A stretch of DNA of 64,000 bases from Staphylococcus phage vB_StaM_PB50. The stretch lies in sequence record OR770614.1; one strand, 5' to 3'. The position numbers and the translations under genes were made by a program. This document shows, one piece after another, positions 30,390-34,107 of the stretch. Position 1 is the first letter of the stretch. Each line of letters begins with the position of its first letter. A model generated the notes under the pieces. The model had not been told where the DNA came from, searched no databases, and saw only the letters and a list, made by a program, of their open reading frames with translations.

Positions 30390-30689
30390 TTATTCTTCTT
30401 CTTGATCATAATCAGGTCTAGTATCTTTAAGTAAATCTGAATCAATACCAGCACCTAATAAATAATAGTAAGTAGTATTCAAAGTAGTTTTATCAGAAAG
30501 ATCATCAGGTAGATCTTCTAGACGAGTATAACCATACATTGAAATGTTTTTATTCATTTCCTGTTTAGCATTCATAGAGTCTGAACGTGGTCCCATTAAT
30601 TCTCTTAATATATCTTGAGACCCAATTGCTCTTAATGCAGAAGCTTCCATATTTGATACGCTTGCAACCTTGTCCGAACCTGAAAGTTG
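30390..30689 (-). CDS. terminal exon of intron-interrupted gene; resembles RNAP beta-prime conserved region H
   Basis: Reading frame is open upstream of the ORF-track ATG back to the intron 3' end. QLSGSDKVASVSNMEASALRAIGSQDILRELMGPRSD aligns with beta-prime [37 protein letters not shown]. Exon start (omega G at 30690) is inferred. Confidence 0.45.
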   Translation of the reverse strand, partial: QLSGSDKVASVSNMEASALRAIGSQDILRELMGPRSDSMNAKQEMNKNISMYGYTRLEDLPDDLSDKTTLNTTYYYLLGAGIDSDLLKDTRPDYDQEEE

Positions 30690-32086
30690 CGGTTATCCTA
30701 TATATTTCTATATAAGCCAGACTATATCTTAATCCCAGAGGGATCATTCCTGTTTCGATTTAAAGGGTTCTCACCTACTTTTATTTATAAAAGCCCTACT
30801 CCTATTGCGAAATTTCATCGCTTAAAGGATAGTCGTTGAACCAATTTATTAGTATTTTGTCTATTTTTTGCATTTCATAAAAGTTTATACGAAGTAAAGG
30901 TATTTCTCTTTCTTTACAAAAATTATTTTTTAATTCATCTCTTTTATTTATATCTTTATCTCTAAACATACTTTTTCTATGATTATTATTGTGTTGTCTT
31001 CCATCGAACTCTATTAAAGTATTATTTCCTGATACATAGAAATCAAATCTCAAGCTTTTTTTGTATTTTAAATCAGGAAATGTTTTTTCTTTAATATAAT
31101 CTATATTATTTTTTTCTAGAAATTTGATTATGTTTTTTTCTCCTCTAGAATATGTGTTCCCTAAACGTCTGTCTTTACGACACATAGGACAACCAGGCAT
31201 TTCATATATCCATCTAGGTTGTTTATAAAAAGTATGATTACATTTCACACATTTGAATTTATTTTTAGATGTATTTGTTTTATATTCATCCAGACATATT
31301 ATATCTCCATTAAACAAATTAGACAGCCTTTCTTCAAATTCTTCATGTGTTATAATTTTAAATTTAGGGGGATTACATACAGGACAACTATCACTTTTTC
31401 TTTTTCTTAGTTGTGATATGCTATTTTCAAATTCATGTCCGCATCTTTTATCTCTCATCACTATTTTAGAATTTATATTTTTGTAATCTCCACTCACATA
31501 CTCTTTATGATAAATATTTAATTTCTCGTTTATAGTATTAAAATTAGATTTTTTTAAACTTCTCTTTTTAATACCGCAATGTGGACATACTTTCCCTACT
31601 TTTATTTTTTCAAATGTTCTTTGGAATTCTTTATTACATTTTAAACATACAAAATCCATTTTAGTTTTTGTATTTACATATTCTTTAGATAATAAGATAC
31701 ATTTATTTTTTACTTCTTCTTTTACATCTTCAATACTAAAAAATTTTCTAGACATTATTAATCTCTCCCAATTTTATATTATAAAAAATAGTTAACTGGG
31801 TTAGATAAAATTGCTAATAAAATTGGTGCTGATTTCCCATTATTTCAATACTTAGGACTCTTAAAAAGAGCTTTTATTTCACCATATATCATCTCACTAC
31901 TTGTTTCTACTTTCGTTCCATTTAGGCAAGTGAGCTTTAGGGAGTTCCAGCTTTAAAGGAATTTATTCGACACTATATTGCTATAGTAGAAGGGGCCAAG
32001 TTCTCTAAACCCGTTTTCATTGATCTTGATGAAGCGTCTAAACTGTAAGCATTCTTTTTCGAAAGGAGCTGTTGTACAATAATTTC
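30690..32086 (-). mobile_element. group I intron carrying an endonuclease ORF (about 1.4 kb; 5' boundary approximate)
   Basis: R GGUUCAACGACUAUCC at 30828..30843 and S AAGAUAUAGUCUGG at about 30705..30722; GC-rich paired region 31800..32080; Q-like AAUCAGCACC just upstream of the ORF; P9-like hairpin then omega G before the last exon. Confidence 0.6.
30802..31755 (-). CDS. intron-encoded homing endonuclease, PD-(D/E)xK (Vsr/DUF559-like) with three N-terminal CxxC..CxxC zinc ribbons
   Basis: 317 aa; repeated C..C....C..C zinc fingers; C-terminal SLRFDFYVSGNNTLIEFDGRQH resembles the RFDF...IE.DG..H nuclease motif; the last 6 codons (WFNDYP) are encoded by the intron R element. Confidence 0.6.
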   Translation of the reverse strand: MSRKFFSIEDVKEEVKNKCILLSKEYVNTKTKMDFVCLKCNKEFQRTFEKIKVGKVCPHCGIKKRSLKKSNFNTINEKLNIYHKEYVSGDYKNINSKIVMRDKRCGHEFENSISQLRKRKSDSCPVCNPPKFKIITHEEFEERLSNLFNGDIICLDEYKTNTSKNKFKCVKCNHTFYKQPRWIYEMPGCPMCRKDRRLGNTYSRGEKNIIKFLEKNNIDYIKEKTFPDLKYKKSLRFDFYVSGNNTLIEFDGRQHNNNHRKSMFRDKDINKRDELKNNFCKEREIPLLRINFYEMQKIDKILINWFNDYPLSDEISQ

Positions 32087-32270
32087 ATACACTATTTTTA
32101 TTTAGTGTTTAGACTATATATTCATCCTATTAGGAGTTTTAATTTTAGTCGTTGAACTTTATTAAGATTATTTACTTAATATTAGATGCTGATCAGTTTC
32201 ATAAACTTTCCCAGCAATTTAAAAAATTTTACATATACATTGCTGTATAAGGAGGCTACAACAGTATTTA
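32087..32270 (-). mobile_element. mini group I intron (ORF-less), boundaries approximate
   Basis: Cores P AAAUUGCUGGGAAAG, Q GAUCAGCAUC, R GUUCAACGACUAAAA, S AUAUAGUCU; 5' start UAAAUACUGUUGUAGCCUCC with IGS GCCUC pairing exon GAGGU; P9 hairpin ACACUA...UAGUGU. Confidence 0.55.
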
Positions 32271-32284
32271 ACCTCTTAACATGT

Positions 32285-32460
32285 AAGTCATTTATCTTTA
32301 CTATATTCATTTTATAGATGAGACTATATCTTCTTCGTCATATATTTAGTCGTTGAACAATTTAATTGATGCTGATCAACTTTAAATGTCTTTTCAGCAG
32401 TTAATATGATTTTAATTGAGCTCATACATAAGTTAACCCAACCGGTACTTTATATCTTGT
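32285..32460 (-). mobile_element. mini group I intron (ORF-less), boundaries approximate
   Basis: Cores P AACUGCUGAAAAG, Q GAUCAGCAUC, R GUUCAACGACUAAAUA, S AAGAUAUAGUCUC; P9 hairpin CUAUA..UAUAG; 5' end probably within the last ~15 codons of ORF 32422..34107. Confidence 0.5.
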
Positions 32461-34107
32461 TCTTAATGGATCTTCTTTATTTCCATCATGTCTATAATAA
32501 ACAAATTCATTCATAGGAACTTCTAGTTTGTCTAAAGCTTCTTGTATTTGATTAATATCAGCTTCAGATTTATTAGGTAAAACTTCTATATAGAAATTCT
32601 CATCACTATTTATGAAACGTTTAATATATCTCATAAATTCTTCATCATTCATTTCATCATAAAAAGATTTATAATTTCTCATATTACTTTGATCTTTATC
32701 TAATGAAGATATAACGTCAAGTATTTTATTTTGAATTTCCTGACGTTTCTTTTTACTATCGCTTACTGCTTCATTTAAGATTGATTCTGATTCTAGGATA
32801 GTTTCATTTAAAGTATTTTCATTGAATTCCATAAAGAATCTTTCGATTATTTCTATATCACTAGATATTGCTTTTTGGAAATCAAAGTTAGCAGGAATTT
32901 CTTTAACACTAAATTTGAATTCTCCATTATCTTTAACATTCTCATCGAAACCAAATTTATCTGCACTATATCTATTAATATCTTCCATATTACCAAATAT
33001 AATTGGACTATCAATACTAAAGTCTGCTAATACATATCCTTGTCCATTATATGATACAGGGAAAAGTTTTATTCTATTTTTAGATGGTTCTACATATGAA
33101 ATTAATTCTATGGATTTGATTCCTAATTTCTTTTCTAATATTTTAAAATAAAGTAAAGCTAATAAGTTAGGATTTATTCTTCCTTGATCTGGTTTAATAG
33201 AGAAGTTTTCATCTAATATCATTGAAGGAGTTACTGTGTAATAAATTTCTTCAGATTTATCTTCAGTAAATACAGGTTTAGAATTTTTAGTTTTATTATA
33301 TAGATAATTAAAAACATCCAATTCATTTTCTAATTGATATTCATAAATTATATCATTTAATTTATTATCAAATTCATAGTCTCCATAGAATTTATAGATA
33401 TCGGTTTCATTATATTTTAAAACTTCTTTATTTATGAATAAAGGTGAATTGAGTACATTGTTCTCTGTAAATATTTTATTGTATATAATATCTTCTTTAG
33501 AATCTGAGAAAATATCATTTCCCATAGATTCTAAAACTTTTACTAAAGTTCTTAACTTAGCATCATTATAGAAATTATACTTATCTTTATTATAACTTAC
33601 ATATTCCTCAGAATTTAAATACTCGCTGAAATCTTTTCTTTTAGTTGAATCTTTACTTAGAAATCTAACTTTAGTAACTTCCGTAAGCTTATCAATATCA
33701 TTCAAAATAGTTTTAATACTGCCAGTATCGGTAACAACAATAGGATTTCCTCCTTTGTAATCTCCGGCATAATCAATTAAAACATCTTCTTCTCTACTTT
33801 TTTGATTTTGAAGAACTATAAATCTAATTTGTGTATTATCATTAAAATACTTAATTAAACTAATATCAAACCAACAAGAATTTCCTTTTTTATCATGATT
33901 TTGACTTTCATTATAATCTAATAGGAAATCTATTTCTGATTCAGTGACTAATATTTCTGTTTCATTCACTAAATCAATAGGAGATTTAATTACACTGATA
34001 TTATCCGATCCACATTCAGAACAAGATGTGATATCTTCATTATATTCTTGAACTTTGCTACAAGAATTACATCTAACGTATTTATTTTTCAATCCATTCA
34101 CTTCCAA
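32422..34107 (-). CDS. first exon of intron-interrupted gene; possible RNAP beta-prime-like (C-terminal module) protein
   Basis: 561 aa; N-terminal CxxC-x12-CxxC zinc ribbon. Followed by three intron cores and a beta-prime region-H-like terminal exon. True 3' end of this exon lies upstream of the ORF-track stop. Family assignment tentative. Confidence 0.35.
   Translation of the reverse strand: MEVNGLKNKYVRCNSCSKVQEYNEDITSCSECGSDNISVIKSPIDLVNETEILVTESEIDFLLDYNESQNHDKKGNSCWFDISLIKYFNDNTQIRFIVLQNQKSREEDVLIDYAGDYKGGNPIVVTDTGSIKTILNDIDKLTEVTKVRFLSKDSTKRKDFSEYLNSEEYVSYNKDKYNFYNDAKLRTLVKVLESMGNDIFSDSKEDIIYNKIFTENNVLNSPLFINKEVLKYNETDIYKFYGDYEFDNKLNDIIYEYQLENELDVFNYLYNKTKNSKPVFTEDKSEEIYYTVTPSMILDENFSIKPDQGRINPNLLALLYFKILEKKLGIKSIELISYVEPSKNRIKLFPVSYNGQGYVLADFSIDSPIIFGNMEDINRYSADKFGFDENVKDNGEFKFSVKEIPANFDFQKAISSDIEIIERFFMEFNENTLNETILESESILNEAVSDSKKKRQEIQNKILDVISSLDKDQSNMRNYKSFYDEMNDEEFMRYIKRFINSDENFYIEVLPNKSEADINQIQEALDKLEVPMNEFVYYRHDGNKEDPLRTRYKVPVGLTYV

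Follow-up and report, generated by a model that had tools for sequence, protein, structure and literature searches.

The window analyzed here, 64,000 nt of DNA from Staphylococcus phage vB_StaM_PB50 (OR770614.1), contains on its minus strand, at positions 30390-34107, a gene interrupted by a cluster of introns, and the locus raises the question of which protein is encoded and how the pieces of its gene are joined. A preliminary description had read the last exon as region H of an RNA polymerase beta-prime subunit and had proposed either a zero-length or a short exon between the introns. We instead consider it very probable that the locus is one gene, for a virion RNA polymerase beta C-terminal subunit of the AR9 gp077 type, that it carries three group I introns (I1-I3), and that it yields its product from four exons joined as E1-E2-E3-E4 (Table 1).

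The introns were recognized by conserved core elements. The R element TTCAACGACTA (classical group I R: GTTCAACGACTA) was present once in each of them, preceded by a 'Q'-like element, (A/G)ATCAGCA, and followed 26, 35 and 111 nt downstream by the S element (G/T)ATATAGTCT; R and S were exact in all three introns. The window contained seven copies of the 11-mer TTCAACGACTA, every one on the minus strand, compared to 0.01 copies expected from shuffled sequences, and the three-core cluster is real, far beyond chance. The cluster of two mini introns and one endonuclease-bearing intron within an RNA polymerase subunit gene, as first described, was thus borne out by three R/S cores and by an endonuclease of PHROG 559.

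The exon map was fixed by the intron-less alleles of phages UFV_DC4 (677 aa) and SA1 (679 aa). Their uninterrupted genes read ...RYKVPVGYLHVKRLQQLLSKKNAYSLDASTRSMKTGQLT(S/G)SDKVASVSNMEAS..., a stretch also given as ...VPVGYLHVKRLQQLLSKKNAYSLDASTRSMKTGQLT(S/G)SDKVAS..., and the spliced window product aligned to them without gaps across all three junctions. The joined coding sequence was 2058 nt long and in frame, with a product of 680 aa (685 aa from the first TTG). The transcript is expected to splice E1-E2-E3-E4 and to read ...RYKVPVG-YLHVKR-LQQLLSKKNAYSLDASSRSMKTG-QLSGSDKVASVSNMEASALRAIG..., with the mRNA junctions GTTGGGT^ACTTACATGTTAAGAGGT^TACAACAG (the latter also written ^TACAACAGC...) and AAAACGGGT^CAACTTTCAGG (also ...GAAAACGGGT^CAACTTTCAGG), and the map predicts the peptides VPVGYLHVK, LQQLLSK and TGQLSGSDK. 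The intron-less alleles confirmed the terminal exon, 30390..30689, to the base. The mini intron that had been thought to end at about 32087 ends 9 nt further downstream than assumed, at 32077, and the 68-nt E3 lies where a zero-length exon had been considered, between this mini intron and the large one. A short internal exon sequence does exist, as suspected, but the 18-nt E2 between the two mini introns had been missed. The three introns fall in a stretch of 29 codons, corresponding to E. coli beta ~1229-1260, where the beta-like domain is most conserved, and E2 is part of a conserved beta motif that aligned with VGYMYMLKL of E. coli.

Compared to DC4, 9 of the 21 nt in the E2 region differed with 0 amino-acid changes (TAC TTA CAT GTT AAG AGG TTA vs TAT TTG CAC GTA AAA CGA CTT). 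Only synonymous change in these codons argues clearly that E2 is translated. This bears on exon skipping as the main outcome, in which the 5' site of I1 would be joined to the 3' site of I2 (GTTGGGT^TACAACAG) to give ...VPVG-LQQLL.... The length of E2 is a multiple of 3 and the frame would be kept, and Landthaler and Shub are said to have reported group I exon skipping in 1999 for the three-intron orf142 of Staphylococcus phage Twort. However, E2 is under purifying selection and its residues are conserved through to cellular beta, and we regard predominant skipping as most improbable; a minor E2-skipped isoform may occur.

The splice sites and the folds had the features of group I introns. With the junctions taken from the intron-less alleles, the 5' exon ended in U in three of three cases and the intron ended in G in three of three. 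In P1 of I1, the exon sequence TTGGGU pairs with the guide GCUCAA (32421..32416); the corresponding pairings are GAGGU/GCCUC in I2 and CGGGU/GCCC in I3, each with a U.G at the splice site, and the minimum free energy (MFE) folds of I1 and I2 set the last exon U opposite the guide G. P1 also covaried among relatives, at the I1 site (TTGGGT/GCTCAA here compared to TTGGAT/GTTCAA in Madawaska and LY01) and at the I3 site (CGGGT/GCCC here compared to CCGGT/GCCG in Machias and AH12). For P10, the sequence UGUUGUA directly before the guide of I2 paired at 7/7 positions with the first 7 nt of E3 (TGTTGTA/TACAACA). The MFE fold of I2 (z = -2.9) showed P1, P2 (GCAA loop), P4, P5, P6, P7, P8 and P9 in canonical order, with P3 also present, and I3, folded without its endonuclease loop, showed P1, P2 (GCAA loop), an extended P5, P6, P8, P9 (GAAA loop) and extra hairpins between P3' and P7', so that the core helices are complete in I2 and I3. 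I1 had no P2, and only ~5 nt (CGAAG) lay between P3' and J8/7 where P8 is expected; a covariance model placed 3 nt of I1 on the 19 model positions of the P8 region. I1 is thus a reduced group I variant and not a textbook member. In the proposed mechanism, a guide of 4-7 nt would form P1 with the end of the upstream exon, with U.G where cleavage occurs, and P10 with the beginning of the downstream exon, and the terminal G of the intron would then sit in the G-binding site of P7 for exon ligation. Self-splicing of the introns, of I1 above all, is presumed.

We infer in vivo splicing of all three introns from the viable isolates that carry identical introns and from the purifying selection on the exons. 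Several points weigh against it and against the reading as a whole. I1 has neither P2 nor P8 and its MFE is no better than that of shuffled sequences (z = 0.04), which leaves autonomous catalysis by I1 uncertain; P10 is weak in I1 and I3 (5-6 of 8 positions); splicing is deduced from sequence; the host protein has a modest similarity to cellular beta (E 1e-3 against the PDB); and the Rfam group I model RF00028 matched none of the three introns at the gathering score or at E <= 10. The Rfam result is uninformative because the same search was also blank in the MarsHill and AR9 loci, which are annotated as intron-split.

The missing P2 and P8 and the missing thermodynamic signal of I1, together with the lack of an endonuclease gene in both mini introns, could also mean that the gene is decaying, that the mini introns, I1 above all, are dead relics, and that the locus gives no functional product. 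We give this very little credence: the plaque-forming isolates Machias and AH12 retain this arrangement with 95-98% identity, the exon changes are only synonymous, and P8-less introns are also found in other AH12 genes, e.g. gyrB. No second copy of the subunit turned up in the searches run, none of which was aimed specifically at the whole genome of a relative. The P8 deletion was seen in 5 phages, and the P8-less design occurs in Machias, AH12 and LY01 and twice in Madawaska, and at four AH12 sites, one of them a second gyrB intron whose core is almost identical; because it recurs, I1 is not a one-off wreck.

The map with an 18-nt exon differs from the one deposited for Machias. In GenBank, CPT_Machias_239 (QQO92615.1, 678 aa) has two introns, and ...VPVGLTYV is joined to VQQLLSKK..., so that I1, E2 and I2 are treated as one intron of ~350 nt (...GLTYV to VQQLL...) and the product contains ...KVPVGLTYVVQQLLSKK.... 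Applied to the window, the model would predict the junction ...TTATGTA^GTACAACAG, the sequence VPVGLTYVV and the peptide VPVGLTYVVQQLLSK. A reconstruction along these lines matched the deposited Machias protein exactly, and an 18-nt exon is invisible to BLAST alone. However, the splice sites of this model follow A and T and not the U...G pattern, its single intron would hold two complete and separately alignable group I cores, and the invariant YLHVKRL would be replaced by LTYVV in a product that is 2 aa short. In Madawaska, LY01 and MarsHill, moreover, the two cores are present or absent as independent units. The deposited gene structure therefore has scarcely any chance of being right. An exact look-up of guessed splice variants identified the deposited sequence ...VPVGLTYVVQQLL..., to be corrected to ...VPVGYLHVKRLQQLL... 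(680 aa). In QQO92615.1, seven residues of a catalytic-core motif are apparently in error, the 18-nt exon between two introns having been overlooked; AH12 and PB50 annotate exon 1 only (556 aa), and the same annotation trap probably exists at other intron clusters of these genomes. With the four-exon map, the mature sequence of this essential virion RNA polymerase subunit can now be given correctly.

Database searches identified the interrupted gene. The PHROG family 3233, 'RNA polymerase beta subunit', matched E1 at residues 452-558 (profile positions 2-108, E 2e-11) and E4 (profile positions 137-223, E 2e-10), leaving ~28 profile positions between them unaccounted for. All profile matches of open reading frame (ORF) 32422..34107 were to beta. 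The terminal exon matched Pfam Rpb2_7 (Rpb2 domain 7; E 0.012). When the spliced protein was compared to the PDB with phmmer, residues 482-648 aligned to bacterial beta ~1160-1313 and the alignment crossed all three junctions unbroken (kvpvgylhvkrlqqllskk vs tvgymymlklnhlvddk); the E4 segment nmeasalraigsqdilrelmgprsdsmnakqemnkni was also aligned. All 13 of the 13 RNA polymerase chains found in the PDB were beta, and no family or chain of beta-prime/Rpb1 was found in the Pfam, PHROG and PDB searches of the host protein. The last exon is beta region I/Rpb2 domain 7 and not beta-prime region H.

Among phages, the DNA was 81-97% identical to the 'viral RNA polymerase beta subunit' gene of MarsHill and Machias and likewise adjoined gyrA. 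The matching gene in Machias, Madawaska and MarsHill carries this annotation in GenBank and is joined from 2-3 pieces. The protein was 63% identical to AR9 gp077 over 96 aa. The GenBank note to gp077 reads 'virion RNAP subunit... proteolysed... HD family phosphohydrolase', and that gene consists of 3 joined pieces and has an HNH endonuclease gene within it. The N-terminal extension of the AR9 protein is removed by cleavage. In Bacillus phages, this class of subunit has been described as an N-terminal HD domain fused to a C-terminal beta fragment (Sokolova et al. 2020). A protein search with the C-terminal domain returned mostly metagenomic homologs and not GenBank phage proteins, and in these homologs the polymerase-like part is mostly a free-standing protein of ~240 aa. 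Virion packaging is known for the AR9 protein from its GenBank note and is putative for the PB50 protein.

A beta-prime homolog ending in region H, with the cDNA reading ...RFIKINENGFREL... through a 48-codon frame ('RFIKINENGFRELGPFYYSNIVSN') or with a zero-length exon in its place, is virtually impossible: although that frame is open for ~43 codons, its IKINENGFREL loosely recalls the KIN-type motifs of beta-prime and the gene does encode a multisubunit RNA polymerase, every match was to beta and none to beta-prime, the frame is E3 read one frame off (true E3: QQLLSKKNAYSLDASSRSMKTG) with half of it running into the P1/P2 region of I3, and an 18-mer coding exactly for YLHVKR lies between the two mini introns. 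The model was rejected as contradicted by the intron-less DC4 and SA1 alleles. The proposal that both large RNA polymerase subunit genes in the window are intron-invaded was right in that two genes are invaded, but both are of the beta type (the other, 13281..15943, matched Rpb2_6) and not beta plus beta-prime.

Table 1. Features of the RNA polymerase subunit gene and of other intron-bearing or flanking elements in the window.
Feature	Position	Strand	Details
Exon E1	34092/34107..32436	-	ends ...CCGGTTGGGT, V-P-V-G plus first base of a Tyr codon
Intron I1	32435..32289 (147 nt)	-	compact group I, without P2 and P8; R 32357..32347, S 32330..32321; ends in G
Micro-exon E2	32288..32271 (18 nt)	-	ACTTACATGTTAAGAGGT; encodes (Y)LHVKR(L)
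Intron I2	32270..32077 (194 nt)	-	compact group I; R 32156..32146, S 32120..32111; ends in G
Exon E3	32076..32009 (68 nt)	-	TACAACAG...AAAACGGGT; encodes (L)QQLLSKKNAYSLDASSRSMKTG
Intron I3	32008..30690 (1319 nt)	-	full-size group I with endonuclease gene; R 30840..30830, S 30728..30719; ends in G
Exon E4	30689..30390 (300 nt including TAA stop)	-	CAACTTTCAGG...TAA; encodes QLSGSDKVASVSNMEASALRAIG...
Homing endonuclease ORF (317 aa)	31755..30802	-	in P6 loop of I3; 3' end of ORF overlaps P6', P7 and P3'
N-terminal Cys4 zinc ribbon	34012..34071	-	C13-x2-C16-x12-C29-x2-C32 (561-aa numbering); opens ~430-aa extension
Terminator-like hairpin of upstream gyrA	34168..34201	-	upstream limit of transcription unit
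15-bp GC-containing hairpin	30347..30382	.	directly after stop codon; likely transcription terminator of the gene
Compact introns in gene 13281..15943	15238-15381, 14496-14642, 13662-13802	-	model matches, 74-76 bits each
Compact intron in gyrB (gene 44213..46672)	44980-45126	-	68 bits; splits Toprim DxD motif (...SDAD^DDGLHI...)

Intron presence or absence was examined in 11 relatives by tblastn and inspection. Five group I insertion sites were found in ~65 codons, namely a (VG^Y), b (KRL^QQ), b' (LLS^KK), c (KTG^Q) and d (GPRA^D), with the caret marking the insertion. No site was occupied in DC4 and SA1. MarsHill had site c only, with an endonuclease gene, and Machias and AH12 had a, b and c, the last as a 180-nt miniature; a and b were occupied in LY01, a and b' in Madawaska, c and d in AR9, and c and d, both with endonuclease genes, in PBS1. 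The window joins the mini introns a and b of the Machias type with an endonuclease-bearing c of the MarsHill type. I1 and I2 were 95-99% identical to the Machias and AH12 copies and I3 was ~85% identical to that of MarsHill; the intron that AR9 and PBS1 have at this codon is a homolog of I3, and in the 3' core I3 is ~74% identical to the AR9 site-c intron. Since each intron is independently present or absent and precise empty sites are known, the units behave as independent insertions.

I3, which encodes a zinc-finger, probably Vsr-like homing endonuclease, is taken as a mobile intron that presumably homes into intron-less alleles. I1 and I2 are endonuclease-less miniatures. Counted in exon sequence, sites a and b are 68-86 nt away from site c, and the miniatures may have spread by co-conversion with I3 or by guide-directed reverse splicing. 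In Madawaska (reverse complement, ~4762-5089), sites a and b' hold two near-identical I1-type introns separated by 36 nt, each with a guide matched to its own upstream exon (TTGGAT/GTTCAA and TTGAGT/GCTCAA). This pair suggests ectopic spread to a look-alike target, and thereby reverse splicing. The 180-nt miniature at site c of Machias begins (P1/P2) and ends (P9/3') like I3 (window 32008..31960 and 30731..30690), but its central core is nearly identical to that of the gyrB mini intron of the window; it appears to have arisen either by deletion or by recombination of intron lineages. In S6 (922-2775) and PALS_2 (922-1438, locus coordinates), a group II intron was found in the same gene, 3 nt downstream of site b. 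It starts with GTGTG and matched Rfam RF00029 (66 bits) and also RF02004, and the S6 copy has a 436-aa ORF. Across the relatives, the locus is an intron hotspot with five group I sites and one group II site in ~65 codons.

The endonuclease of I3 matched PHROG 559 with E 2e-57. Treble-clef zinc-finger modules were seen as three stretches matching Pfam DUF4379 (E 4e-8) and three matching Zn_ribbon_8. The C-terminus matched nuclease families weakly, with DUF2726 (E 6e-4) and DUF559 (E 0.036) both below their curated cut-offs, and contained the motif IEFDGRQH; PHROGs 9084 and 7140 (homing or intron-encoded nuclease) matched residues 195-305 (E 1e-23 and 7e-15). A sequence search of the PDB with the endonuclease gave only zinc-finger noise and matched no solved structure. 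An architecture of DUF4379/CapR-like repeats and a Vsr-like nuclease has been described for AR9-type introns (PMC12350094). The I3 protein resembles the EDxHD/Vsr-like class of that work in layout, with three DUF4379-like repeats followed by a putative Vsr/DUF559-like domain of ~100 aa, and the class is encoded in introns of AR9-like RNA polymerase genes; the nuclease-domain match of the I3 protein is weak.

I1 and I2 belong to a compact intron family without endonuclease genes that Rfam does not detect at all; the DC4 paper likewise reports no Rfam introns. An exact Q...R...S pattern scan of IMG/VR returned 103 loci, mostly on viral contigs of 200-400 kb from few metagenomes, and the family, as judged by this pattern, extends well beyond Staphylococcus phages. 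A MAFFT/RNAalifold analysis of 28 mixed introns gave only P4, P7 and P8, with P3 out of register, and was replaced by an anchor-based helix parser and a metagenome-only alignment. In 34 distinct members, P3, P6, P8 and P9 were kept with 8-25 different stem sequences, P3 scored 12.95 with its own partner compared to 9.1 with foreign or shuffled partners, and the hairpin z-scores were 2.2-3.6. For 18 independent metagenomic members, 93.8% of the cells paired, compared to 83.4% after shuffling (0 of 500 shuffles reached the observed value) and 28-39% with slid partners; this structure includes the P3/P7 pseudoknot and 11 pairs with double changes.

A covariance model, R1, built solely from the 18 metagenomic sequences, detected I1 at 59.3 bits (E 4.8e-9) and I2 at 37.8 bits (E 5.4e-5), as well as four further window introns, of which three lie in the beta-like gene 13281..15943 and one in gyrB. 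R1 missed I3 as a single match, with ~1 kb of endonuclease gene sitting in P6, and the fold with the endonuclease loop removed was used in place of R1 detection. In the whole AH12 genome, 31 R1 matches (E <= 0.01) were found in clusters of 2-4, and four of them had no P8. With blastn, AH12, Machias and LY01 gave 28-33 places per genome, whereas MarsHill and Madawaska gave 9-11. It is conceivable, if doubtful, that the I1-type introns (147 nt here, ~130-150 nt elsewhere, without P2 and P8) are autonomous ribozymes and the most reduced end of a family that, with ~30 copies per Staphylococcus jumbo-phage genome and >100 loci in metagenomic phage contigs of 200-400 kb, acts like a miniature transposable element, spreading to sites that match its 5-7-nt guide. 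The Azoarcus group I intron, at ~205 nt, is larger than the I1 type, and a literature search for the smallest size given for natural group I introns yielded nothing citable. If the P8-less, 147-nt I1 self-splices, it would redefine how small a natural group I ribozyme can be. The blindness of Rfam to the family means that the intron content of AT-rich jumbo phages is underestimated.

The polymerase-like part is preceded by a long N-terminal extension. ORF 32422..34107 is the maximal mechanical ORF (561 aa, TTG start), and translation probably begins at the TTG at 34092 (MKNKY...), because this start is annotated in Machias and fits the homolog consensus MEKKYIRCNSC. The CxxC-x12-CxxC zinc ribbon noted earlier at the N-terminus is formed by C13/C16/C29/C32, all four invariant in 8 homologs, and in the AlphaFold2 (AF2) model this region has strands at 10-40 with a predicted local distance difference test score (pLDDT) of ~70-75. 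For the N-terminal ~430 aa (window 32755..34092), only 7 homologs were found, from Staphylococcus jumbo phages and as two metagenomic proteins, the latter 43-45% identical. The extension matched no Pfam, NCBIfam or PHROG family, and no HD domain was found in this protein with Pfam or NCBIfam. The AF2 model of the extension had a mean pLDDT of 62, and its best Foldseek matches, to LapG-like cysteine proteases, had E 0.036; no match reached E <= 1e-3. The extension also contains an invariant Cys78-Trp79 and a faint, non-significant LapG/transglutaminase-like protease fold. Elsewhere the same polymerase fragment carries other fusions, with HD in Bacillus phages and with GNAT in the metagenomic protein P0023.

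The closest known systems are AR9 g077 and PBS1 269-272 (Lavysh et al. 2016, Sokolova et al. 2020), which are the orthologous gene and have the site-c intron (KTG^Q) at exactly the same codon, in PBS1 with a related endonuclease. As here, the RNA-polymerase-like part in AR9 and PBS1 is the C-terminal ~240 aa only. In contrast, they have no introns at a and b but have one at d (GPRA^D), and their extension is an HD phosphohydrolase, whereas that of PB50 is a zinc ribbon and a ~430-aa region with no HD match. The gene, its synteny with the intein-containing gyrA and its intron sites are shared with the Staphylococcus jumbo phages Machias, AH12, MarsHill and Madawaska (Korn et al.); unlike in Machias and AH12, site c of PB50 bears an endonuclease gene and not a 180-nt miniature. 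Several group I introns in one phage gene, with core elements of the subgroup IA type (GUUCAACGACUA/GAUAUAGUC), are also seen in Twort and T4, and an endonuclease ORF in a peripheral loop, here P6, is also seen in T4 td. The Twort and T4 introns are, however, ~250-1000 nt long with full core helices, whereas two of the PB50 introns are only 147 and 194 nt long, one has no P8, and an 18-nt exon lies between them.

An intron endonuclease (PhiPA3 gp210) in a jumbo-phage RNA polymerase gene has been shown to mediate phage-phage competition (Birkholz et al. 2024; PMC11620839). In both that system and the PB50 locus, an RNA polymerase subunit gene of a jumbo phage houses a mobile group I intron that encodes a homing endonuclease, and as in the PhiPA3 case intron-less alleles in relatives, here DC4, SA1 and S6, could be cleavage targets; the phage clade, the subunit and the endonuclease family all differ. 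A competition function of the I3 endonuclease could be proposed by analogy only. Introns in AR9-like RNA polymerase genes are already published and the PB50 locus adds another example. Three details appear to be new, namely the 18-nt exon missed in the Machias protein, an I1 without P2 and P8, and a compact family undetected by Rfam with 31 copies in AH12. The locus is a natural system for the study of intron homing, co-conversion and phage-phage competition via RNA polymerase genes.

The window has a G+C content of ~23% and its genes are nearly all on the minus strand. With 30300-34200 as a blastn query, the Staphylococcus jumbo phages Machias (97%), AH12 (96%) and MarsHill (81%) were matched, followed by S6, PALS_2, UFV_DC4, SA1, LY01 and Madawaska and, more distantly, by the Bacillus phages AR9 and PBS1. 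The gene is flanked by terminator-like hairpins (34201..34168 and 30347..30382), with no such site found on the minus strand within it, so the gene is likely to be one transcription unit. A sigma-70 promoter scan was uninformative, with 28 sites compared to 31 expected.

Among the other intron-bearing genes of the window, the beta-like RNA polymerase gene 13281..15943, on the minus strand, is called 'non-viral RNA polymerase beta subunit' in MarsHill and consists of four ORFs split by the three compact introns. In AH12, gyrB has a second, P8-less intron further downstream. As in relatives, the gene studied here lies directly downstream of gyrA (34229..37783, minus strand), which contains an intein (Intein_splicing, E 1e-20). 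A match to LAGLIDADG_3 was weak (E 0.073, under the Pfam cut-off). The intein is inserted after ...AASRY^C, and the same intein is annotated in relatives.

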